A stretch of 64,000 nucleotides of DNA from Alphaproteobacteria bacterium. Lineage in GTDB: Bacteria; Pseudomonadota; Alphaproteobacteria; Sphingomonadales; JAKSBY01. A model generated the notes under the pieces. The model was given only the letters and a program-made list of their open reading frames with translations, did no database searches and was not told where the DNA came from. Position 1 is the first letter of the stretch; each line of letters begins with the position of its first letter. The position numbers were made by a program, and so were the translations under genes. The DNA is taken from positions 111,392 through 175,391 of the forward strand of contig JAJFIV010000008.1 of NCBI GenBank assembly GCA_021774625.1, read 5' to 3'. This document shows positions 2 through 44,745 of the stretch, in pieces.

Positions 2-2191
2 TGCTGTACCGAGATTATCCAGGGCGGATTGCGAGGATTGCGCCACATCCATCAGCCGGCCACCCAAACGGGCGGCGCCATGTTCAATTTTACCGACGGC
101 CTGATCCGTATCATCGACCAGCCTGGTGCGTTCGTCGGTCAATGTGGCTGCCGCTTCCGCAATGGCGTTCCGGGTTTTTTCAAGCGTATCCCGCAGGCCT
201 TCATTGTGAACCGTCAGCGTGCCTTCAGCTTCCCTGATTCTATCGGCCGCAGCGCCGGCCTCATCGCCCAGTCTGCCGGTCCGTTCCGCCAGCTTATCGG
301 CACTTGCGCTCAGGGCCTCTTCCGTTGTCCGGGCGGCGCTGCCCATTTCTTCCGACTGTTCGCGAAACCGGCCCACGGCATCGATAATGACGGTGGCGGA
401 TTGCTCCGATGCCTCCACCAGAGAAGCCCGCTGGCTGGCGATTTCCTGTTCAATCTCGGCCAGCTTGCGTTTGGTTTCTTCCAGCGCCTGACCGAGATTG
501 GCGCTGCGGTCATCCATGACGCCACCGGCATCCCGCATATTTTCCGCGGCTTCCCTGGCCGAGGCGGCGATCATATCCGCCTGATCCGCAAGGCTGCGGG
601 CAAGCCGCTCAAGCTGTTCCGTGTGCGATGTTGCGCTTTCGCCAATGGCGCTTGATTGTAAATCGAGTTCACCGCGCAGGGTTTCAAGCTGCGACAGGGC
701 CTTTGCGCCGATGCCGCCGCTGCTGTCTTCCAGCGAAGAAATATAGTCCTTAAGCGCATCATTCGCCGTGCCGAGTTTTTCGTAAATGCGGGCGGCGGCA
801 GCCTCCGCTGTCTGTTCGGCGTCGCCAAGTTTCTCCGTGAGCCTATCACCGGTTTCCTCAAAACCGAGCGTGGCCCGCGACAGGGCTTCGCTCATGCACT
901 GCTGCATGTCGGCGGCGCGCTGTTCCACTTGCTGCAGGGCATATTCGGCCTGGCTGAGGATATTTGACGCGGCTTTTTCCCCGGCGCTGCCGGTTTCATC
1001 CGCATTGGCCTTGAAGGCTTCAACGGCTCCGTCAAGGGCGGAACGCGCCTGATCAGCCGCATCGCGAACCGCGCGGGTCATGTCCGTGGCCTGCTGTTCG
1101 AAAACCGAGCCCGCCCCGCTGGCTTCCGATATTGCGTCGGCTGCGGCCTGTTTCAGGTGCGTGGCCTGACGGGTGATCGCCTGTTCAATCGCCGCCGCCT
1201 CTTCAGTGGTTGTGGCGGCGAGCGAGGTTAAAAGCGCGGTCTGGCGTTCCAGCGCTTCGGTGATCGCGCCCGCCTTGCCTTCCAGTGACCCGATGCGTTC
1301 TTTCAGGCGTTCGCTTTCTTCGCCCATTTGACCGGCCATGGCGGCAAGGCGGCTTTCCGACTCCGCAATCTGTGCCGAAAGCGCTGTCCTGTGACGGTCC
1401 AACTCGCTGCCGGCCTGTGTAATGGTATCGACGGATTCCTTCGCGGTCACCTTCAGGCCTTCGGTGTTCAGGCGCAGAAGATCATTGGCGCTCGCCGCCC
1501 CGGTCTGGGCATCGGTAGTGGCGCTGCGGATTTCCGAGGTCAGCGCGGCAATAGCGGCTTCAATGGAATCGATGCGGGTGGACAATTCTTCGCTGAAGGA
1601 CGCCATGGCGTCGCGTTCGCGTTTCAGCACATCCTTGACATTGACGGCCTTGGCCTCGGCATCTGTGGTGGCGGAAAACAGATCGTTGATCTGCTCTTTA
1701 AAGCGGTTCTCAAGGATATCGAGACGCGAGGCGGCAAGATCGGTTGCGACCTCGATATGCCCGGCCTGGCGTTTGATATTGTCGGAAATTTCACCAAGTC
1801 TGGCCTGCGCGCCGTCGATGGGCGCAAGGGTGCGGTCAATGCCCTGGGCAATGGCCAGCCGGCGTTCCAGAAGCGGGTCGGTGCGCTGAAAAACCAGCGC
1901 CACCAGCCAGAAAATCGCGACCGGCGTTGCCGCACCAGCCACCAGCGCCGCGATATCGATCAGGGTCAGGCCGGCATCCGGCGCGAACAGACCGCTGGCG
2001 AAGGCGACAAAGCCAGCGGCGGCCAACCACGCCAGGCTCGCCGCGCTCGCATAATAAACCGGCCACAGGCGGCGGACGGATTTGATGCGGCCCGCAGGCT
2101 GGGTCTCTGCGGTTTCATTGCCCCCGCTTTCCGTTGGCGCGGCATCGCTTTCCGCCGTTACCTGGTCGAAGGATAAATTCTCTTTGGTCAT
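2..2191 (-). CDS. Membrane-anchored coiled-coil protein of at least 730 aa. N-terminus present; the C-terminal end runs off the left edge. Absent from the supplied ORF track.
   Basis: Manual minus-strand translation from the ATG at 2191-2189 (MTKENLSFDQVTAESD...) is stop-free down to position 2. Two hydrophobic helices (LWPVYYASAASLAWLAAAGFVAFASGLF; LIDIAALVAGAATPVAIFWLVALVF) are followed by about 600 aa of Ala/Glu/Gln/Leu/Arg-rich coiled-coil-like sequence. The + strand ORFs here (29..655, 1328..2176) look like Gly/Arg-rich antisense shadows. Confidence 0.8.
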   Translation of the reverse strand, partial: MTKENLSFDQVTAESDAAPTESGGNETAETQPAGRIKSVRRLWPVYYASAASLAWLAAAGFVAFASGLFAPDAGLTLIDIAALVAGAATPVAIFWLVALVFQRTDPLLERRLAIAQGIDRTLAPIDGAQARLGEISDNIKRQAGHIEVATDLAASRLDILENRFKEQINDLFSATTDAEAKAVNVKDVLKRERDAMASFSEELSTRIDSIEAAIAALTSEIRSATTDAQTGAASANDLLRLNTEGLKVTAKESVDTITQAGSELDRHRTALSAQIAESESRLAAMAGQMGEESERLKERIGSLEGKAGAITEALERQTALLTSLAATTTEEAAAIEQAITRQATHLKQAAADAISEASGAGSVFEQQATDMTRAVRDAADQARSALDGAVEAFKANADETGSAGEKAASNILSQAEYALQQVEQRAADMQQCMSEALSRATLGFEETGDRLTEKLGDAEQTAEAAAARIYEKLGTANDALKDYISSLEDSSGGIGAKALSQLETLRGELDLQSSAIGESATSHTEQLERLARSLADQADMIAASAREAAENMRDAGGVMDDRSANLGQALEETKRKLAEIEQEIASQRASLVEASEQSATVIIDAVGRFREQSEEMGSAARTTEEALSASADKLAERTGRLGDEAGAAADRIREAEGTLTVHNEGLRDTLEKTRNAIAEAAATLTDERTRLVDDTDQAVGKIEHGAARLGGRLMDVAQSSQSALDNLGTA

Positions 2192-2327
2192 GGGCTTGCC
2201 CGCAATTTTATTTGGCATGTTTGCAAGAACTTACCTTGCCTCACTTAACGAATAAGTTCAAACTTTATGCAAAATAGAATGAAATATGGTTAATATCATC
2301 TAAAAATGGGGCCGGGTCCGGGGGGTA

Positions 2328-2582
2328 ATGATGGAAGAACAGACAAAAACGCGCCCGACGCCGGCGCAGACACGCTATCTGTCACTTGGTCTGGAACAGG
2401 CGGGTGGCAAGCTCCCCTTGTTTGACCGCGACGGACAGCGCGTCAGGCCGGCCACCATTCGCGCATGTCTGGATGCCGGCTGGTGTGAAAAATGGTATGA
2501 AAACCCGATTCGCAGGGATTGGCTGGTCTGCAAATTAACGGAGCGCGGAAAAAGCGCGGTGAAGGGCGGGCTGATTGTATGA
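2328..2582 (+). CDS. Small conserved-looking hypothetical protein (84 aa), first gene of the Hpt operon
   Basis: ORF MMEEQTKTRPTPAQTRYLSLGLEQAGGKLPLFD... Its TGA (2580-2582) overlaps the ATG (2579-2581) of the next gene (ATGA coupling). No family recognised. Confidence 0.55.
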   Translation: MMEEQTKTRPTPAQTRYLSLGLEQAGGKLPLFDRDGQRVRPATIRACLDAGWCEKWYENPIRRDWLVCKLTERGKSAVKGGLIV

Positions 2583-2911
2583 CCGCCGCTTCGCCCATTG
2601 ACCGGACACATCTCGCATCCTTTACCGGCGGCGATCCTGAATTGGATATGGACCTTATCCGGTCTTTTGCAGAAAAAACAGAAGGCTATCTGCTCGCACT
2701 GTCACAGTCCAAGGGCGAGAACTGGAAAGACATGGCCCATAAAATCAAGGGGGCCGCCAGGGCCATCGGCGCTTTTGAAATGGGCGACCTGGCTGAAAAA
2801 GCTGAGCATTTGCCAGCCAGTGATGCTAAAGACCCTATCCTGAATTCATTACGCAAAGCGCTGAATGATATCCGTATCTATGCGGAAAATTCCACGAAGG
2901 AGCAGAATTGA
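2579..2911 (+). CDS. Hpt (histidine phosphotransfer) domain protein
   Basis: HKIKGAARAIGA matches the Hpt HxxKGxxxxxG phospho-histidine motif. I moved the start to the internal ATG at 2579 (MTAASPIDRTHL...) because of its ATGA overlap with the upstream stop. Confidence 0.8.
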   Translation: MTAASPIDRTHLASFTGGDPELDMDLIRSFAEKTEGYLLALSQSKGENWKDMAHKIKGAARAIGAFEMGDLAEKAEHLPASDAKDPILNSLRKALNDIRIYAENSTKEQN

Positions 2912-3447
2912 TGAAACACACGGCCCGCATCCTGAAAACCCTTATTTGCCTGGTAAGTTTGTTTTCTCCGGCGACGGCTTTTGCCGAGCCCGAGACGGTC
3001 TATCTGGTTCGTCATGCGGAAAAAATGACCGGCCCCGGCGATGTGCTGCTATCCGAGGCCGGTGAGACCCGCGCCGCCTGGCTGGCCGGTTATTTCCGGG
3101 ACAAGGGCCTGACACAGGCTTTTTCCACTCCATACAACCGGACAATGAAGACCGCGGAAATTATTGTCCGGGATATGACGATGGCGGTAAAAAGCTATGA
3201 CCCTGGCAATCTGCCGGATTTCGCCGCGTCGCTGAAGAACCTTTCCGGAATCATTCTGGTGGTCGGTCATAGCAACACGACACCCGCTCTGGCCGGGCTG
3301 CTGGGTGGTGAGCCCGGGACGCCGATTGTGGAAGACGGAGAATATGACCGAATCTATAAGATAGATTTCGCGCCGGATGGCCGTGTGACGACGGAACTGT
3401 ATTATAGCGAACCCCGCTTCTCCGGTGAGGGCAACACAGCAAAATAA
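2908..3447 (+). CDS. Histidine phosphatase superfamily protein (SixA / phosphoglycerate-mutase-like) with a Sec signal peptide
   Basis: LVRHAEK (RHG-type catalytic motif) and VVGHSNT (second catalytic His). N-terminus MMKHTARILKTLICLVSLFSPATAFA|EPE looks like a signal peptide. ATGA overlap with the Hpt stop at 2908-2911. Confidence 0.8.
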   Translation: MMKHTARILKTLICLVSLFSPATAFAEPETVYLVRHAEKMTGPGDVLLSEAGETRAAWLAGYFRDKGLTQAFSTPYNRTMKTAEIIVRDMTMAVKSYDPGNLPDFAASLKNLSGIILVVGHSNTTPALAGLLGGEPGTPIVEDGEYDRIYKIDFAPDGRVTTELYYSEPRFSGEGNTAK

Positions 3448-3546
3448 GAAAATTCCACTCCGCCATATTGACGTTTCACTGCCCAATGAGGCAGGTTAGC
3501 GGCGCTGGGGGCGAATATTTTACAGACGGGGGCAGGATTTGAATTT

Positions 3547-4098
3547 ATGGCCGATTATGATTTTGAGCGATTGAATGTTCTTCTGGTTGAAGACAGTCCC
3601 TTTATCCGCTCTCTTCTGACCAACTGCCTGAAAATCCTTGGGGTTGGCGGTGTTTCCACAATGGATCATGGCGGCGATGCCATCGACTTCCTCAAGCTTG
3701 TCCATAGCGATCCCATGAAGGCCGGTGTGATGTCCATTGATATGGTCATTTCCAACTGGGATATGTCGCCGGTGGACGGGATGATATTGCTGCGTTGGAT
3801 ACGCAGGCATAAAGACAGTCCGGACCGCTTTTTGCCGTTCATTATGATTTCGGCCTATTCGGAAAAGGAAAGGGTACAGGAAGCCCGCGAAATGGGGGTT
3901 TCGGAATTTTTGACCAAGCCATTCACCATCGAATCAATCAGCCAGAAACTGATCACGACCATCGAACGGCCCCGGCAGTTTGTGCATACCGGCAGTTATT
4001 TCGGGCCGGACAGGCGCCGCGTCAAAGTGGAGTTTCCCGGTCAGGACCGCAGAATACTCACCGACAAAAGCCCTGAAGTGGAGGTGGTCCATGGCTGA
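3547..4098 (+). CDS. Single-domain CheY-like response regulator with a roughly 50-aa Arg-rich C-terminal extension
   Basis: Receiver motifs LLVEDS, VISNWDMSPVDG (phospho-acceptor Asp), FLTKPF. C-terminal tail ...YFGPDRRRVKVEFPGQDRRILTD. Confidence 0.9.
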   Translation: MADYDFERLNVLLVEDSPFIRSLLTNCLKILGVGGVSTMDHGGDAIDFLKLVHSDPMKAGVMSIDMVISNWDMSPVDGMILLRWIRRHKDSPDRFLPFIMISAYSEKERVQEAREMGVSEFLTKPFTIESISQKLITTIERPRQFVHTGSYFGPDRRRVKVEFPGQDRRILTDKSPEVEVVHG

Positions 4099-4594
4099 TA
4101 AAAAGAATATCAAGGTCCGGCTTTACCGCTTTAAAAACCGCCTTCGGGAAAAGACCGCCGGCTTGTCGGGCGGCGAAGCTAAAATTCCCGCCGATGTCCT
4201 GGCGCAGGCGCAGGCGGCGCTTGCCGATATGGCGGAAGATTACCCGGACTGGGTTTCCGGCCTGATCGATCAGTTGGCGGAACAGCACCGCCGTTGCGTT
4301 GATTCGCCGGATACACGGCGGGTGCATTTCGAGGAAATCAACCATATCGCCCATGATATGAAAGGTCAGGGCGGAACTTTTGGTTATCCGCTGATCACGG
4401 CTTTTGCCGATTCCCTATATGGATTCAGTTATTCCAAGGGTGTTTTGACCGACAATCATGTGGAACTGATCAAGGCGCATATTGATTCGATGCGGGCGGT
4501 CATTACAAACCGGGTCAAGGGAGATGGCGGGGAAATAGGCACAGAATTGACCAAAGGACTGAATCAGGCGATTGAAAAACATAAGATTTCCTGA
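4091..4594 (+). CDS. Second Hpt domain protein
   Basis: HDMKGQGGTFGY matches the Hpt motif. Start taken at ATG 4091 (MADKKNIKVRLYRF...), overlapping the response-regulator stop by 8 nt. The track ORF 3980..4594 has an N-terminal extension inside the regulator gene. Confidence 0.75.
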   Translation: MADKKNIKVRLYRFKNRLREKTAGLSGGEAKIPADVLAQAQAALADMAEDYPDWVSGLIDQLAEQHRRCVDSPDTRRVHFEEINHIAHDMKGQGGTFGYPLITAFADSLYGFSYSKGVLTDNHVELIKAHIDSMRAVITNRVKGDGGEIGTELTKGLNQAIEKHKIS

Positions 4595-4753
4595 GCCTCC
4601 GGGCTTTACGGGTTCTGCTCCCAAAAAAGTGATATGGTTTTTTGCCGAACTGTCCTATTTAATGGCGTTGACAGGCTTGTCTGCGGCCACAAAATTGGCC
4701 CATTTCATTTCTAAATAAATGTAACGCATGCTTGGCGTGAAAAAGGACATCAT

Positions 4754-5413
4754 ATGCCGATCACATTCCGGAAAGCTTTCAGCAGCTTTTTATTCTTGCC
4801 GGGGCTTATATTTCTGGCGGCGGCCATAGCCGTTGCGCCGGCAAAAGCGGAAGCAACAAGTGCCGATCTGGCGGCGGCCCGTGAATTTATCTCAAAACTG
4901 GCCGACGACACATTCGAAGTTTTGAATGACACCCGCCTGACCCAGGATGAGCGGGATGCGGCATTTCGCGCGCTTTTGCATGAAGGCTTTGATCTTGAGT
5001 ATGTGTCAAGACTGGTTCTCGGGCGCTTCTTGCAGCAGGCAAGCCGTGAACAAATGGCGGATTATCAGGCCGTCTTTCCAGAATTTGTGATCAATGTCTA
5101 TGCCCGCCGCCTGACCGAATTCGGCGATGAGGTTTTTCGGGTTACCGGCGCCGTCCCGGCCGGAAAACGCGGCGATATGTATGTCCAGAGCCAGTTGATC
5201 CGTTCAAACGGGGCGCCGCCGGTTGCGGCGGATTGGCGCGTCAGGCGGCAGGATGACGGCTTTAAAATCATCGACCTGAAAGTTGAGGGCATCAGCATGG
5301 TCGTCACTCAGCGGGACGAGTTCATGGCCCGTATTGATCGGGAAGGCATGGACCAGTTAATCCGCGATTTGCAGCGGGGAACAATTGCCACCGCCTCCGC
5401 CGATACCGATTAA
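4754..5413 (+). CDS. MlaC/Ttg2D-family phospholipid-binding periplasmic protein
   Basis: Signal peptide (LFLPGLIFLAAAIAVAPAKA). The length and sequence pattern (FDLEYVSRLVLGRF..., YQAVFPEFVINVYARRL, DWRVRRQDDGFKIIDLKVEGISMV) are typical of the toluene-tolerance Ttg2D/MlaC family. Confidence 0.75.
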   Translation: MPITFRKAFSSFLFLPGLIFLAAAIAVAPAKAEATSADLAAAREFISKLADDTFEVLNDTRLTQDERDAAFRALLHEGFDLEYVSRLVLGRFLQQASREQMADYQAVFPEFVINVYARRLTEFGDEVFRVTGAVPAGKRGDMYVQSQLIRSNGAPPVAADWRVRRQDDGFKIIDLKVEGISMVVTQRDEFMARIDREGMDQLIRDLQRGTIATASADTD

Positions 5414-36882: not shown

Positions 36883-37737
36883 ATGGACAAAGCACCTGAC
36901 ATAGGCGGCCCGGCGGAATTACTGGTCAGAGCCATTAGCCGTCTGCTGCGGCCGCTGGTGCGCGCGCTTATTGCGCATGGCATTACCTTTCCGATGATAT
37001 CGGAAATTTTAAAACGGCTTTATGTCAGGAGCGCCGCCGAGGACTTCCCCATCGCCCGCTCAGCCGGTCAGCCCGTTTCCGACAGCCGCATCAGCCTTCT
37101 CACCCGCGTTCACCGCAAGGATGTCAAACGGCTGCGGCAGCATTCGGACAGGCCACCTGCGGCATCGGGCGCCGACAGCTCGCTTGTCGCGCAGTTGATC
37201 GCAAAATGGCTGGCCTCGCCCGACTATACAGATAAGGACGGCAATCCCACGCTTTTGGCCCGGACCGAAAGCGGCGGTGAAACCCCTTCATTTAACGGCT
37301 TGGTCACTTCCATCAGTAAAGATGTCCGGCCACGGGTCATACTTGATGAACTTGTGAACAGGGAAATCGTCACCATCGGCCCCGATGACAGAATCAGGCT
37401 GAATAAAAAGGCCTTTGTGCCACGGAAGGACTTTGAAAATATGACCTTCTTTTATGGACATAACCTGCATGATCATATGGCGGCGGCGACAAGCAATCTG
37501 TTACAGGAAAACACCCCATTCCTTGAACGGTCCGTTTATTATCACAATCTGACCCCGGCGTCGGTGGATATCCTGCGCAAGGAATCCGGGGAAACCGGCA
37601 TGGATGCGCTTCTGGCACTGAATAAAAGGGCGCATGCTCTGGCTGAACAGGATAAGGGGAAAAAGAGCGCCAATCAGCGCATGACCTTCGGCGTTTATTT
37701 CTATAAGGCGGATATGGAAGGAGCGGATGATGTTTGA
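36883..37737 (+). CDS. Cytoplasmic protein of unknown function with an HTH-like N-terminus (module gene B; recalled as DUF6502-like)
   Basis: LLRPLVRALIAHGITFPMISEILKRLYVRSAAE...SDSRISLLTRVHRKDVKRL resembles a helix-turn-helix. No signal peptide or transmembrane segment. The family name comes from memory only. Confidence 0.7.
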   Translation: MDKAPDIGGPAELLVRAISRLLRPLVRALIAHGITFPMISEILKRLYVRSAAEDFPIARSAGQPVSDSRISLLTRVHRKDVKRLRQHSDRPPAASGADSSLVAQLIAKWLASPDYTDKDGNPTLLARTESGGETPSFNGLVTSISKDVRPRVILDELVNREIVTIGPDDRIRLNKKAFVPRKDFENMTFFYGHNLHDHMAAATSNLLQENTPFLERSVYYHNLTPASVDILRKESGETGMDALLALNKRAHALAEQDKGKKSANQRMTFGVYFYKADMEGADDV

Positions 37738-39055
37738 GCGCCTTCTTGGCGAGCGGTATTTCGCATTTTTGCTTGGCGGCCTGATTCTGATTGCCATCAC
37801 TGTTTTTCTGATGCGCGGGCCGGGCGGCATAGGCGGCACCGGGATTGATGACCGGGACGGTATCGGCGGCACCGGCATTGTCGGCATGATTGAAAAATTC
37901 GGCAGTATCTATGTGAACGGTGTCAAGATCGATTATGCGCAAAACCTTCCCGTCGACCTGAATGGCCGCCTAGGCGGGACAGGAGACCTGCGCCTTGGCC
38001 AGATCGTGGAAGTGCTGGCCTCAGAACGGGACGATGGAACCTATTCCGCCAACAGCATTTCGGTGCGCTATGAAATCGTCGGCCCGGTCACGGCGGCCGA
38101 TCCCTCTGCCGGCACCATAGACGTCATGGGACGGTCCGTACTATTGTCGGCCGCGACCCTTAAAGGGCCCGGCACTGCTACCCAGCCGGCTATCGGTCTG
38201 ACGGTTGCTATCAGCGGCTTTGGCGGCGCCAATGGCAGGCTTTATGCGACACGCATAGATTACCTGCCGCCGGATCATGCGGCCAGCATCCGGGGTGAGA
38301 TGTCCGCTGGCGGACCGGATGGCGTCACGATTGACGGTCTCGCCGTGGAATTGGCGCCTGGCCTGACCGGTATGGCGGGCGGAAAAGCGCTTGCAATTGG
38401 TCATTATCAGGATGGACGGCTGATTGCCGATAACCTCCGTCCCCTGCCCGCCCTGCCCTTTGATGGACACGCTGACCGGCTGATTATCCAGGAATTTACC
38501 CCGCCCCCGGCTTTTCAATCGGCGCCTGTTACGCCTGTTCTCCCACCATCGCCGGAGCCGGAAAGGCCCGGCCGGGATGCTGAAAATCAGAACCGGCCGA
38601 TAAGGGAGGATATTAACGAACCCGCGCCACAGCCGGAACCGGACGGTATTTTGCGGCCTGTCCGGGATGACAGACCGGCTGGCGGGGAAATCCGCCCGGC
38701 CAGCCTGACGGAAAGCGAGCCGGTTCGCGTGGATACGGGCATCCGGCCGCAAAGCGCCGACACCAATGTGCGGACAGAAACCGCAGACCGCGTGGTCGAG
38801 ACCGGGCCAACGGAGACGATCCTGCGAACGGACGTTCAGAATGACGCAGTGACTGGCGAGCGCATCGAAACACCGGATGCGCCGGAGGGTCTTGATCGTC
38901 CCGGGACCGCCAGCCGTCCGGAACAGACTGAACGGCCAGAAACCGTGATCAGGCCTGAGAAAGCCGATAGACCGGAGAAAATTGACCGGCCGGAAAAAGT
39001 TATCCGCCCCGAGCGTCCCAAACGCCCGGAGCGGCCAAAAAGACTCAAACTTTAG
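37727..39055 (+). CDS. N-terminally membrane-anchored beta-rich protein with a roughly 170-aa Pro/Glu/Arg-rich repeat tail (module gene C; recalled as DUF5666-like)
   Basis: Transmembrane segment FAFLLGGLILIAITVFLM. Duplicated GIGGTG motif followed by FGSIYVNGVKIDY. Tail ends RPETVIRPEKADRPEKIDRPEKVIRPERPKRPERPKRLKL. 11-nt overlap with gene B. Confidence 0.7.
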   Translation: MMFERLLGERYFAFLLGGLILIAITVFLMRGPGGIGGTGIDDRDGIGGTGIVGMIEKFGSIYVNGVKIDYAQNLPVDLNGRLGGTGDLRLGQIVEVLASERDDGTYSANSISVRYEIVGPVTAADPSAGTIDVMGRSVLLSAATLKGPGTATQPAIGLTVAISGFGGANGRLYATRIDYLPPDHAASIRGEMSAGGPDGVTIDGLAVELAPGLTGMAGGKALAIGHYQDGRLIADNLRPLPALPFDGHADRLIIQEFTPPPAFQSAPVTPVLPPSPEPERPGRDAENQNRPIREDINEPAPQPEPDGILRPVRDDRPAGGEIRPASLTESEPVRVDTGIRPQSADTNVRTETADRVVETGPTETILRTDVQNDAVTGERIETPDAPEGLDRPGTASRPEQTERPETVIRPEKADRPEKIDRPEKVIRPERPKRPERPKRLKL

Positions 39056-39895: not shown

Positions 39896-39924
39896 ATAAT
39901 ACGTGGGAAATATTCCCACGTCAA
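39896..39924 (-). promoter_or_regulatory. Sigma70-like promoter P3, with the same 17-bp palindrome filling the spacer
   Basis: On the minus strand: TTGACG (39924-19) - 17 nt - TATTAT (39901-39896). Palindrome GTGGGAAATATTCCCAC at 39903-39919, extended to ACGTGGGAA-ATA-TTCCCACGT. On the plus strand, TATAAT (39895-39900) abuts the palindrome. Confidence 0.55.
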
Positions 39925-40016
39925 GTTCAAAAAGCCGCATATGCACAGGAACTGTGGGTTCCTATGATGGAGGAAAAGAATTAAGGTCTAAAAAATCAGG
40001 TTCGAGAGGAGCGTTT

Positions 40017-41597
40017 ATGTTGAACCGGTTCAGACAGATTACTTTTGTTTTTCTGGCATTGCTGCTTGTGTCTGCGACCACGTCGCGGGCAGACGGCGGT
40101 CTCACGGGAGAAGCGCTTGATCGTCTTGCAGCCAGGGCGATGACGGCATTCAACGTGCCAGGCATGGCAGTCGGGATCGTCCGGGATGGCCACTTTATTT
40201 TCGCCAAGGGCTATGGTGTCCGGGATATCCGCAGCGGTGCGGCCGTGGATGCGCACACGCTGTTTGGCATTGCCTCCAATACCAAAGGCATCACAGCAAC
40301 GGCGCTCGGTCTTCTTGTAGATGAGGGGAAGCTGAGCTGGGATGACAAGGTCACGAAGCACATCCCTGAATTTGCGCTTTACGATCCCTATGTGACACGG
40401 GAATTCACTATCCGCGACCTGTTGAGCCACCGGAGCGGTCTGCCGCTCGGGGCCGGCGATCTGATGTGGTGGCCGACCGGGCAATTTACCCCGGCCGAAG
40501 TCCTTGCCGGCATGAAGCATCTGAAGCCAGCCACCAGCTTTCGTTCCACTTACGCCTATAACAATATGCTTTATGTGGTCGCTGGTGAACTGATCCCCCG
40601 CATCACGGGGCAAAGCTGGGGTGATTTTGTCCAGGCCCGGCTTCTCGACCGGCTGGGTATGGAACCCTGTGCAGTGCTGCGAGACCGGGTTGAAGATATT
40701 GAAAATATCGCCAATCCCCATGCGGTGGTGGACGGCGTCATCACGGCAATGCATGTTGAGGGCGATGACTTCAAGACGGCTGAAGCCGCGGCCGGAGTCG
40801 TCTGTAACATCACCGGCCTTGCCAAATGGGTGGCTATGCATCTCAATGAAGGCAAATTGCCCGACGGCAAAGTGCTGATTTCCGAAGACCAGCAGAATGA
40901 ACTCTGGTCGGCGCAAACGGTACAGCCCGTTTCCCGGCAACGCTACGAGGACAGCCGGACCCACTTCCGCGCCTACGGACTGGGATATGGCCTTGATGAT
41001 TATCACGGTTACAAGCGGATCAGCCATGGCGGCGGCCTGCCCGGCATGGTCACCCTGATCACCATGCTGCCGGAACTGGAGCTCGGGGTTATCGTGCTGA
41101 CCAACCAGCAGGAAGGCGGGGCCATGCGGGCAGTCACGGAAACCATCCTGACCTCCTATATGCCGATGGAACAAAAGGACTGGGTCGCGATCCTCAAGGA
41201 TCGCGGCAGTGAATTTGCCGCGCGCATGGACAAGCTGGAAAAAGAGATCTGGGATACAGCCGCCCTATCGGGCCCACCTCCATTGCCGCTTGAAGCTTAT
41301 GCCGGAACCTATCGCGATCCCTGGCGCGGCGATGTCACTATCAGGAAAGACGGCGATCGGCTGGTGCTCGCCTTCAGCCGCTCGGACTTGCTGATCGGCC
41401 CGTTGCATCACTATAAAAACGGCGTCTTTATCGCCCGCTGGGATGACAGGGCCATGTTCGCCGATGCCTATGTCCGCTTCACGACCGGCTTTGACGGCGC
41501 AACCAGCGGCATGACCATGGAAGCAATTCTTCCGAGCGCCGACTTTTCCTTCGATTTCCACCATCTGAATTTTCAGAAGGTTGCCAAAAAGGAGTAA
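40017..41597 (+). CDS. Secreted serine hydrolase (class C beta-lactamase / PBP family) with an extra C-terminal domain
   Basis: RBS GAGAGGA. Signal peptide; SxxK (IASNTKG); YxN (YAYNNML). The C-terminal roughly 120 aa resemble DUF3471. The track ORF start (39903) lies inside the operator and is rejected. Confidence 0.85.
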   Translation: MLNRFRQITFVFLALLLVSATTSRADGGLTGEALDRLAARAMTAFNVPGMAVGIVRDGHFIFAKGYGVRDIRSGAAVDAHTLFGIASNTKGITATALGLLVDEGKLSWDDKVTKHIPEFALYDPYVTREFTIRDLLSHRSGLPLGAGDLMWWPTGQFTPAEVLAGMKHLKPATSFRSTYAYNNMLYVVAGELIPRITGQSWGDFVQARLLDRLGMEPCAVLRDRVEDIENIANPHAVVDGVITAMHVEGDDFKTAEAAAGVVCNITGLAKWVAMHLNEGKLPDGKVLISEDQQNELWSAQTVQPVSRQRYEDSRTHFRAYGLGYGLDDYHGYKRISHGGGLPGMVTLITMLPELELGVIVLTNQQEGGAMRAVTETILTSYMPMEQKDWVAILKDRGSEFAARMDKLEKEIWDTAALSGPPPLPLEAYAGTYRDPWRGDVTIRKDGDRLVLAFSRSDLLIGPLHHYKNGVFIARWDDRAMFADAYVRFTTGFDGATSGMTMEAILPSADFSFDFHHLNFQKVAKKE

Positions 41598-43560: not shown

Positions 43561-44745
43561 TTACATACCCTTTTCCACGTTGTGATCTGTCACCTTCCTT
43601 ATGAAATCCTGTGCGATCCGCGCCGACAGCACAATCAGCGGCGCCTCGGTATCGGAATTGACCATCAGGGCAAAGGCCACTTTCTTTTCAGGAAAATAAT
43701 ACATTTCCGTCCGATAGCCGGGGTAAAAGCCGGAATGGCCGATGGAAAAACCGGCTTCTTCAATGTCCCGCGTGATGACGCCGAGGCCGTATTTCAGCGT
43801 GAGGTTAGGTGATTCGACCCAATCGACCGTGTCCATCATCTGATCATAGACGGCGGGTGGCACCACCTTATCCTCATAAAGCGCCTTGGCGAGCCGGGCG
43901 AGCGCGAGCGGCGTTGCCGCAAACCCGCCGCCGGCCCATTCCATGGCCGGATTGTATCTGAGATCGCCCGCCGCATCCCGGTTGCTGCGGACCGGCAGGC
44001 GGAAATGATTGTCCGCAGGGTTCCAGTGGCCGGTAACCAGGCCAGGAATATTCATGGAATTCGACGGTGTAATTCCCTTTAGATTATAATGGGATAGAAG
44101 GCGATCTTGAATTAAATTATAATAATTCTGACCGGTAATTTGTTCAACGATCAGGCCCAGCAGCGTGAAATGGGTGTCGGAATATTGAAACCCCTGACCG
44201 GCGGCGAAGGGCGCGGGCTTATCCAGTATATATGAGATGGATTGCTCGGCATCGAACAGAAAAGCCGGGTCCTCCTTCATCCGCGCCGTATAATCAGTGA
44301 GGAAAGCATCCTCCAGATAATGGTGCGCCAGTCCCGCCGTATGGTTCAGCAGATGGCGCACCGTCATATCGTTGCCGTTCGGCAGGCGGGGATACCAGCT
44401 GCGGTCGCCCAGATAGAAGGAAACTTTCGCATCCAGGTCCAAAAGGCCTTCCACCGCCAGTTGCAGGGCAACGGCGGCAAACAGGACCTTGCCGGTGGAA
44501 CCCGCCAGCATTTTTCCGGTGGCGGTCAGCGGTTCGCCCGTGGATTCATCGGCCAGTCCGGCGACGCCGGTGACTTCCATCCCATCCGGCAAAATCGCGG
44601 CGAGCGATACGCCAACCAGATTATGTTCGGCCCTGACTTCCCCGGCGATTTGTGTCAGCAGTTCCGCCGGAGTCTGGGCCATTAAGCCATTGATGCCGGC
44701 AAATAAGGCAATCCCGATTGAAATGAAAGATTTTAACGATTTCAT
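43561..44745 (-). CDS. Secreted serine hydrolase (beta-lactamase family)
   Basis: Signal peptide; SxxK (GSTGKV). Length and pattern fit class C-like esterases. Confidence 0.85.
   Translation of the reverse strand: MKSLKSFISIGIALFAGINGLMAQTPAELLTQIAGEVRAEHNLVGVSLAAILPDGMEVTGVAGLADESTGEPLTATGKMLAGSTGKVLFAAVALQLAVEGLLDLDAKVSFYLGDRSWYPRLPNGNDMTVRHLLNHTAGLAHHYLEDAFLTDYTARMKEDPAFLFDAEQSISYILDKPAPFAAGQGFQYSDTHFTLLGLIVEQITGQNYYNLIQDRLLSHYNLKGITPSNSMNIPGLVTGHWNPADNHFRLPVRSNRDAAGDLRYNPAMEWAGGGFAATPLALARLAKALYEDKVVPPAVYDQMMDTVDWVESPNLTLKYGLGVITRDIEEAGFSIGHSGFYPGYRTEMYYFPEKKVAFALMVNSDTEAPLIVLSARIAQDFIRKVTDHNVEKGM

Follow-up and report, generated by a model that had tools for sequence, protein, structure and literature searches.

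In Escherichia coli, the phosphatase SixA acts on the phosphorylated Hpt domain of ArcB, and it is a cytoplasmic protein whose RHG motif lies at residues 7–9. The CheY proteins of the Cle type, which bind cyclic di-GMP (c-di-GMP), have to our knowledge been studied only in Caulobacter, where they are thought to act without phosphorylation partners. Their arginine-rich region, a tandem [YF]xGP[DE][RK]R motif with an Arg upstream and an Asp downstream, binds an intercalated c-di-GMP dimer (PMC5677366, PMC7382256), and CleA D67A and CleD E70A are still functional, whereas mutants of the arginine-rich region are not (PMC5677366). [quoted passage not shown] Here, we set beside these systems a short operon at positions 2328–4594 of a 64,000-nucleotide stretch of DNA from an alphaproteobacterium (Sphingomonadales, JAKSBY01; GenBank assembly GCA_021774625.1, contig JAJFIV010000008.1, positions 111,392 to 175,391 of the forward strand), the whole of which we call the window. 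The operon consists of five genes on one strand, G1 to G5, that encode a small protein, an Hpt protein, a phosphatase of the histidine phosphatase superfamily, a CheY-like receiver, and a second Hpt protein.

How is such a row of genes to be understood? A preliminary description, made from the sequence alone, saw in it a phosphorelay without a kinase, in which the phosphatase, coupled to the first Hpt gene, might be the SixA of the system, or else an exported enzyme whose tight coupling has another reason. In this paper, we argue for a different arrangement, which we hold to be probable while well short of certain: an exported phosphatase has been inserted into, and is superimposed on, a conserved cassette of a Cle-type receiver and an Hpt protein. 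The phosphatase part of the story is ordinary; the conserved cassette is the more interesting part.

Results

The cassette in other genomes

A scan with an alignment of G5, at one genome per species, gave 254 loci, and the best 80, with G5 orthologues at 56–73% identity, were taken with 7-kb flanks and searched by tblastn with all of the window proteins; the source genome of the window lies outside the set of genomes scanned. To these 80 we added the two closest metagenomic relatives (G5 at 74% and 71% identity), and the sum is what we mean by the 82 orthologous loci. G4 lies directly upstream of G5 in all 82 of them, and everywhere the genes run either as small protein–Hpt–receiver–Hpt or as just receiver–Hpt. 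By tblastn, G2 stands upstream of G4 in 45 of the 80 genome loci, and G1 is present in 40. The phosphatase is found nowhere: G3 had no tblastn match in any of the 80 loci, and there is no phosphatase in any of the 82. The two metagenomic relatives, once labeled with Pfam, each read as a coiled-coil gene, then small protein–Hpt–Response_reg–G5, again with no phosphatase. In other words, as a conserved gene order, the row that was first described holds for four of its members and breaks at the phosphatase (0 of 82 loci).

The range of the cassette is wide, taking in Kordiimonadales, relatives of Iodidimonas and Rhodothalassium, some Sphingomonadales, and other alphaproteobacteria, and it comes in pieces as well as whole. 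A large divergent gene, G0, has a counterpart divergently upstream in most of the 80 loci (tblastn), even where G1–G2 or G4–G5 is missing. Relatives of Emcibacter have a short form, G0 / G4–G5; Salaquimonas has G0 / G1–Hpt without G4–G5; and in Sneathiella, G1 is alone, with no Hpt or receiver neighbor. Two further loci, L003 and L009 (1–6456 in each), have a G4–G5 pair with the Asn-type receiver described below and lack any match to G0, G1, or G2 over the 6.4 kb before it, which implies that there the upstream half of the cassette has been lost or replaced; one of the two is among the closest relatives of the window.

The window is without a kinase, as had been stated, in the sense that HisKA and HATPase_c domains are absent from the 20 largest other open reading frames (ORFs), the set that was scanned. 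In the 7-kb flanks of the loci, tblastn with the window genes gave only G0, G1, G2, and, in a few loci, the MlaC gene and the next gene downstream, the other flank genes not having been scanned for kinase domains. The kinase that feeds the cassette may be encoded elsewhere in the genome.

A receiver without its acceptor

G4 matches Response_reg (PF00072, E=1e-18), its best NCBIfam match is CheY (E=1.6e-15), and by BLASTP it is 33% identical to CheY of E. coli. In that alignment, the segment VISNWDMSPVDG of G4 runs without a gap along VISDWNMPNMDG of CheY, and Asn70 falls on the position of CheY Asp57. That is, the receiver has Asn, not Asp, at the place of the phospho-acceptor, a feature that the preliminary description overlooked. 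Of 81 orthologues, 62 have Asn at this position and 19 have Asp. All 19 of the Asp-type loci (the Emcibacter relatives and two Pedomonas loci) are without G1 and G2, and most of the Asn-type loci carry both. On the tree, the Asp forms fall into two groups that lie apart from each other, so the acceptor position is not strictly constrained.

What has been kept is the tail. The C-terminal 45 residues, with the pattern RQFVH..YFGPDRRR......RR.L.DKS..VE, are the best-conserved part of G4: in the 81 orthologues, RQFVH..FGPDRRR is at least 90% conserved and RR.L..S..VE nearly so. The first copy of the motif, YFGPDRR, matches the Cle consensus exactly, with Arg143 upstream and Asp173 downstream, and the tail segment RPRQFVHTGSYFGPDRRR aligns by BLASTP with KPREWVEAVAYVGPDRRR, the CSP1 peptide of CleD, at 10 of 18 identical residues without a gap (E=3e-7). 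In SEKERVQEAREMG, Arg109 and Arg114 each reach at least 90% conservation among the orthologues; they lie where helix alpha4 is expected, and either might correspond to CleD Arg113, an alpha4 residue with a part in activation by c-di-GMP. On the sequence of its tail, G4 is most likely an effector of the Cle type, predicted to bind c-di-GMP through its arginine-rich region. Since CleA D67A and CleD E70A are functional, a degenerate acceptor is in character for the Cle family, and Asn70 together with the Cle-type tail makes it unlikely that G4 relays phosphate between two Hpt proteins. The proposal that Hpt, phosphatase, regulator, and Hpt form one functional phosphorelay is thus not supported, on two counts, for the phosphatase is outside the conserved system and the receiver is without an acceptor Asp.

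One can still imagine a true His–Asp–His relay in which G4, phosphorylated at Ser69 or Asp72, shuttles phosphate between G2 and G5 and is served by a kinase encoded elsewhere. Such a relay would make sense of the invariant His in both Hpt proteins, of the conserved Glu15, Asp16, and Lys124 of G4, and of the Asp acceptor that 19 orthologues possess; moreover, a Ser, Thr, or Cys precedes position 70 in all of the listed orthologues, and the D57N mutant of E. coli CheY can be phosphorylated on the preceding Ser56, the equivalent of G4 Ser69. Yet each of the substitute acceptors meets an obstacle. Asp72 was rejected because the residue at that position varies (D in 39 orthologues, E in 23, Q in 14, and M in 3), and Ser or Cys at position 69 is equally present in the Asp-type receivers and so does not compensate for anything lost. 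Receivers with Asp and receivers with Asn are intermingled on the tree, the homologous Cle proteins function without an acceptor residue, and the Asp-type loci are all without G2, so that a proper acceptor coexists with one Hpt protein only. We regard a relay of this kind as rather improbable and keep to the view of G4 as a Cle-type effector.

The Hpt proteins

Two Hpt proteins do accompany the receiver, as was first described. G2 is an Hpt protein by Pfam (PF01627, E=1.9e-7, above the gathering score), and its phospho-His54 (codon 2738–2740) is invariant in 46 of 46 orthologues. G5 is below threshold in Pfam (E=5.6e-4, 20.5 bits, under the cut-off of 24.6), and the case for it is made by other evidence. 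Its phospho-His88 (codon 4352–4354) is invariant in 81 of 81 orthologues, and position 91 is K or R in 79 of them; it has the motif HDMKGQGGTFG, where the consensus of the CheA Hpt domain is HSIKGGAGTFG; and in profile searches it matches CheA P1 and YPD1. Its AlphaFold 2 (AF2) model is a helical bundle with a mean predicted local distance difference test score (pLDDT) of 78, for which the best Foldseek matches in the PDB are HptB and CheA P1, at template-modeling scores of up to 0.72 (0.64–0.72 for CheA P1) when normalized to the target and with E-values of 0.18 or worse. G5 has 625 homologues, the best of them other than itself at 74% identity, and the mean column identity over 22 diverse orthologues is 76%.

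The phosphatase and its family

G3 is a His_Phos_1 protein (PF00300, E=1.2e-9), and Arg34, His35, Arg54, Arg77, and His120, which fit the catalytic core of the superfamily, are intact in it and invariant in its family. The Sec-type signal peptide that had been noticed is readable in the sequence as an n-h-c segment: the N-terminus, MKHTARILKTLICLVSLFSPATAFA and then EPE, has three basic residues, a hydrophobic core, and A-x-A, and the predicted mature protein has about 153 residues. This is a family trait, for 107 of the 120 closest homologues have a hydrophobic signal or lipobox segment ahead of the RHAEK motif. The family is a large one, with about 2400 homologues in Alphaproteobacteria, Bacteroidota, Planctomycetota, Gemmatimonadota, and Acidobacteriota, and the nearest of them anywhere is only 54% identical to G3.

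Could G3 nonetheless be a SixA-like phosphatase that acts on phosphorylated G2 or G5, its N-terminal segment being a nonexporting or cytoplasm-facing anchor and its overlap with the Hpt gene the product of selection? It is a short single-domain His_Phos_1 protein with its catalytic residues in place, it is cotranscribed with an Hpt gene, and some of its homologues are named "SixA phosphatase family protein" in the databases. When the profile of the family was run against the PDB, the longest alignments were with the putative SixA proteins 4hbz (3e-5) and 2rfl (5e-4), and the best match was PspA, a phosphoserine phosphatase (4ij5, 1e-11). Against this, the match of the profile to SixA of E. coli itself (1ujb) is not significant (E=0.16), no SixA model appears among the NCBIfam matches of G3 at E≤1, and the signal peptides and lipoboxes of the family would put its members on the wrong side of the membrane for a cytoplasmic Hpt protein; phmmer with the single G3 sequence found no match in the PDB.

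The neighbors of the family tell against a SixA role as well. We screened 81 loci of the phosphatase family (80 metagenomic and one genomic, 428 kb in all) with hidden Markov models (HMMs) built from orthologues of G1, G2, G4, and G5, and found in them no gene like G1, G2, or G5 and only one marginal match to a receiver. Three neighborhoods labeled with Pfam, one of the 81 and those of two further family members, come from Kordiimonas aestuarii, from an Emcibacter, and from a marine lineage that is widespread; they are all different and have no Hpt gene, and K. aestuarii has its phosphatase homologue and its G4–G5 operon on separate contigs. If we add the absence of the gene from 82 of 82 orthologous operons and the position of the overlap inside a repeat-bounded insertion (below), then a phospho-Hpt partner role for G3 fails on predicted location, on sequence, and on conserved association, and we consider it very unlikely. 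The evidence instead supports a G3 that is predicted to be exported or periplasmic and for which no functional link to the Hpt proteins is conserved.

The insertion

If the phosphatase has no business with the Hpt proteins, why does its gene overlap one of theirs? Two of the overlaps reported at the outset are correct, the ATGA shared by G1 and G2 at 2579–2582 and the 8 nucleotides shared by G4 and G5 at 4091–4098. The third, an ATGA at 2908, is not: the sequence there is TTGATGA, the stop codon TGA of G2 occupies 2909–2911, and the ATG of G3 occupies 2911–2913, so stop and start overlap by 1 nucleotide (or by 4 if TTG 2908 is taken as the start). Between G3 and G4 there is a gap of 99 nucleotides.

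Around G3 lies a direct repeat, GAAAATTCCAC, whose two copies agree at 11 of 11 positions and are spaced by 563 nucleotides; a repeat of this kind at both boundaries is expected by chance with a probability of about 1.3e-4 (26 of 200,000 simulations). The make-up of the segment is simple: the Shine–Dalgarno sequence GAAGGAG (2896–2902), 8 nucleotides, ATG, the ORF, and TAA, a promoterless unit whose ORF ends exactly at the second copy of the repeat. Excision of 2896–3458 in silico gives back an intact G2 of 109 residues ending in ...YAENSTPPY* and a G2–G4 spacer of 75 nucleotides, which falls within the range of the relatives. That is, the last four codons of the present G2, and its stop codon, are derived from the insert, and they have replaced an original end PPY (stop TGA 3469–3471). 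The insertion brought G2 its new stop codon, hence the 1-nucleotide "tight coupling."

The relatives bear this out. Their G2–G4 spacers have a median of 93 nucleotides and are of 40–192 nucleotides in 43 of 45 loci, too short to have room for a gene of 537 nucleotides; the lone outlier (locus L075, 4458 nucleotides) has a weak and distant G2-like match. No trace of the repeat or remnant of a phosphatase is found in their G2 3′ ends and spacers. In a neighbor-joining tree of concatenated G4 and G5, the window clusters with loci L002 and L003 within the main Asn-type clade, and because it is nested among loci without a phosphatase, the phosphatase is the derived state. Read from these comparisons of sequence, the gene for the phosphatase was inserted into the final codons of G2 in this lineage only, and we infer that integration took place at an 11-nucleotide microhomology that is now the direct repeat. 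The absence from relatives, the repeat, and the exported family together make the coupling of Hpt and phosphatase a scar of insertion rather than evidence of a phospho-Hpt phosphatase. Thus, the other thought of the preliminary description, that of an exported enzyme coupled for another reason, is supported, the reason being a lineage-specific insertion.

As to what kind of element this was, foreign base composition was considered and rejected, since the insert is host-like, with a GC content of 0.561 and a GC content at third codon positions (GC3) of 0.63, and G3 equals the host and the neighboring genes in both measures. The window has no second copy of the insert, the inserted segment has no attC-like site or transposase, and its only inverted repeats are of 9 nucleotides and at chance level. 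Without terminal inverted repeats or a further copy in the window, an origin as a transposon or miniature inverted-repeat transposable element is unsupported.

The same facts could be run backward: the phosphatase might be ancestral and have been lost elsewhere, for instance by recombination between the 11-nucleotide repeats. Deletion between direct repeats is common and would leave exactly the phosphatase-free order, and G3 is host-like in base composition. What makes this highly unlikely, in our judgment, is that the nesting of the window with L002 and L003 would call for several independent and precise losses, that the relatives keep no remnant of repeat or phosphatase, and that even the nearest homologue of G3, at 54% identity, is one of a family found in unrelated contexts. 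That the segment is an assembly artefact, two sequences wrongly joined in a contig derived from a metagenome, is hardly credible, for although the only record of the window proteins is one 360-kb contig and short repeats can mislead assemblers, an 11-nucleotide repeat is far below the k-mer sizes that assemblers use, and the segment is exactly a Shine–Dalgarno sequence, an ORF, and a stop codon, with an in-frame stop for G2 and the GC and GC3 of the host. We therefore stay with the insertion.

Beside the insertion there is a TTGAC box at 3468–3472 (+), 75–79 nucleotides upstream of G4, that overlaps the reconstructed G2 stop TGA. TTGAC occurs between −100 and −50 of G4 in 27 of 78 loci, with a peak near −75. 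On this weak evidence, the box might be the −35 element of an internal promoter for G4–G5 that the insertion left intact; a scan for consensus promoters and terminators did not call it and gave nothing above the shuffle expectation within the operon. A scan of 2000–4900 with Rfam gave no matches and so no c-di-GMP riboswitch. Farther down, between G5 and the MlaC gene, a promoter-like TTGACA-16-CAAAAT at 4668–4700 overlaps a small terminator-like hairpin, and this is probably where the operon ends and the next unit begins.

Coordinates and flanking genes

The five same-strand ORFs lie where they had been placed, and their coordinates are collected in Table 1 with those of the other features.

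Table 1. Positions, in window coordinates, of the genes and sequence elements discussed in the text
Feature	Positions	Strand	Description
G0	1–2191	−	divergent large protein, at least 730 residues; runs off the window start
G1	2328–2582	+	84 residues; the public gene call begins at the second Met, ATG 2331 (83 residues)
G2	2579–2911	+	110 residues; stand-alone Hpt
Direct repeat, copy 1	2885–2895		GAAAATTCCAC; within the 3′ end of G2; bounds the insertion on the left
Inserted segment	2896–3458	+	563 bp; Shine–Dalgarno sequence, phosphatase ORF, second repeat copy
G3	2911–3447	+	178 residues; branch-1 histidine-phosphatase-superfamily protein, predicted exported
Predicted signal peptide of G3	2911–2985	+	residues 1–25, MKHTARILKTLICLVSLFSPATAFA; cleavage after AFA
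Direct repeat, copy 2	3448–3458		GAAAATTCCAC; first base directly follows the stop codon of G3
G4	3547–4098	+	183 residues; CheY-like receiver (residues 11–135) and conserved C-terminal extension
Asn70 codon of G4	3754–3756	+	phospho-acceptor position
Arginine-rich region of G4	3967–4071	+	residues 141–175, RPRQFVHTGSYFGPDRRRVKVEFPGQDRRILTDKS; Cle-type motif match
G5	4091–4594	+	167 residues; CheA-P1-like Hpt

G1, the small protein at the head of the operon, has no match in Pfam or NCBIfam, and its 406 homologues are all unnamed or "hypothetical." Cys47, Cys68, Trp52, Trp56, and Trp65 are invariant among them, and the family has a GGKLPLFD motif. The AF2 model of G1 (pLDDT 83.5) is a minimal winged helix, with weak Foldseek matches to the winged helix-turn-helix cores of the MarR type and to 2jtv. 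The divergent G0 is a membrane-anchored protein with two hydrophobic segments near its N-terminus and then a long coiled coil rich in Ala and Glu; its only domain match, to Apolipoprotein (PF01442), is sub-threshold, and relatives of it have 854 and 1432 residues (L166 784–3348 and L163 1315–5613). Its architecture, two transmembrane segments and a long coiled coil, is reminiscent of the polar landmark protein TipN. Downstream of G5 are the gene for MlaC, an unnamed gene, and uvrB, and the 20 largest of the remaining window ORFs encode housekeeping proteins and hydrolases. Genes elsewhere in the window, at 37727–39055, 39903–41597, and 43561–44745, which are unrelated to the operon, encode a DUF5666 protein and two proteins of the serine beta-lactamase family (PF00144), one of which has a DUF3471 tail.

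Discussion

How might the cassette work? Because Asn replaces the acceptor Asp, G4 would be activated by a nucleotide, c-di-GMP, and not by phosphorylation, as has been shown for CleA and CleD of Caulobacter. Its obligate partner would be G5, to which it is coupled in translation, and G2 would probably be a second one. Since both Hpt proteins keep an invariant phospho-His, the probable source of their phosphate is a hybrid kinase encoded at an unlinked site. G4 may then dock on G5 and G2 as a receiver that cannot be phosphorylated, and such docking would link the level of c-di-GMP to the flux through a His–Asp relay, or the reverse. Into the end of G2, in this lineage only, there would have entered a 563-bp segment with a ribosome-binding site and a phosphatase gene, and G3 presumably rides on the G1–G2 transcript and acts on some phospho-substrate in the periplasm.

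Several observations pull the other way, and they should be weighed together. What suggests that G4 docks on the Hpt proteins is the coupling of their genes. The conservation of Glu15, Asp16, and Lys124 in spite of Asn70 hints at a retained function that is related to phosphoryl groups or Mg, and in CheY D57N the phosphate can be taken by Ser56, whose equivalent place in G4 is held by Ser69. In the tail, the second copy of the motif is degenerate, FPGQDRR with Q for P (GGPERR in relatives of Kordiimonas), and G4 has RRxxxD where CleD has [R/K]RxxD. The HMM screen of the phosphatase-family loci was built on orthologues of G2 and G5, which a divergent Hpt protein could escape. As for the insertion, the insert is of host-like composition, and no same-species allele with an empty site was seen among the scanned genomes, the source genome being outside that set.

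It is tempting to go further and to suppose that the core of the operon is a junction, so far undescribed, between c-di-GMP and a His–Asp phosphorelay. In such a scheme, G4, a Cle-type receiver bereft of its acceptor Asp, would be a c-di-GMP-controlled decoy or clamp for one or two dedicated Hpt proteins (G5, G2), so that the level of the second messenger gates the flow of phosphate from an unlinked hybrid kinase to its real output regulator. G0 could be a platform for localization, and the repeated switching between Asp and Asn, in perfect association with the presence or absence of G1–G2, would stand for two modes of operation. We offer this as a tentative idea that we ourselves doubt.

Why, then, does a five-gene operon from one metagenome deserve attention? 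In part, it is a caution: function should not be read from translational coupling in a single genome until synteny has been checked in others. The insertion is also an unusually clean case, a promoterless unit of Shine–Dalgarno sequence, ORF, and stop codon that landed within an operon at 11 nucleotides of microhomology. Beyond this, a Cle-like receiver is fixed beside a strongly conserved CheA-P1-like Hpt protein across several alphaproteobacterial orders, with an acceptor that flips between Asp and Asn, and if G4 and G5 interact, then the link between c-di-GMP and a phosphorelay becomes directly testable.

Comparison with known systems

The phosphatase has two described counterparts. Like SixA of E. 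coli, G3 is a short single-domain protein of branch 1 with RH(G/A) and a second catalytic His, but it differs in belonging to a family with signal peptides or lipoboxes, in having no significant sequence match to SixA, and in having no conserved gene link to an Hpt protein. Like PmrG (Ais), the periplasmic phosphatase of the heptose(II)-phosphate of the lipopolysaccharide core, it is a small exported His_Phos_1 protein, and since the NCBIfam match is not significant (E=0.18), the analogy is one of location only.

G5 shares with CheA P1, HptB, and YPD1 the HxxKG...G signature and the helical bundle, to which it adds a basic helix, likewise conserved, at the N-terminus (VRFYRFKNRLKEKTAGL) and the segment EDYPDWV. 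A possible counterpart, by analogy, is HmrX of Caulobacter.

It is with the Cle proteins that the comparison goes deepest, and here G4 is likened to them by sequence alone, with binding to c-di-GMP or to the flagellar switch only predicted; flagellar and chemotaxis genes were not seen among the window ORFs scanned. Like the Cle proteins of Caulobacter, G4 consists of a single receiver followed by a C-terminal arginine-rich tandem motif, and its acceptor position is of the same dispensable or degenerate sort, Asn70 where CleD has Glu70. What sets G4 apart is its company: its gene is coupled in translation to that of a conserved Hpt protein and is often preceded by those of a second Hpt protein and G1.

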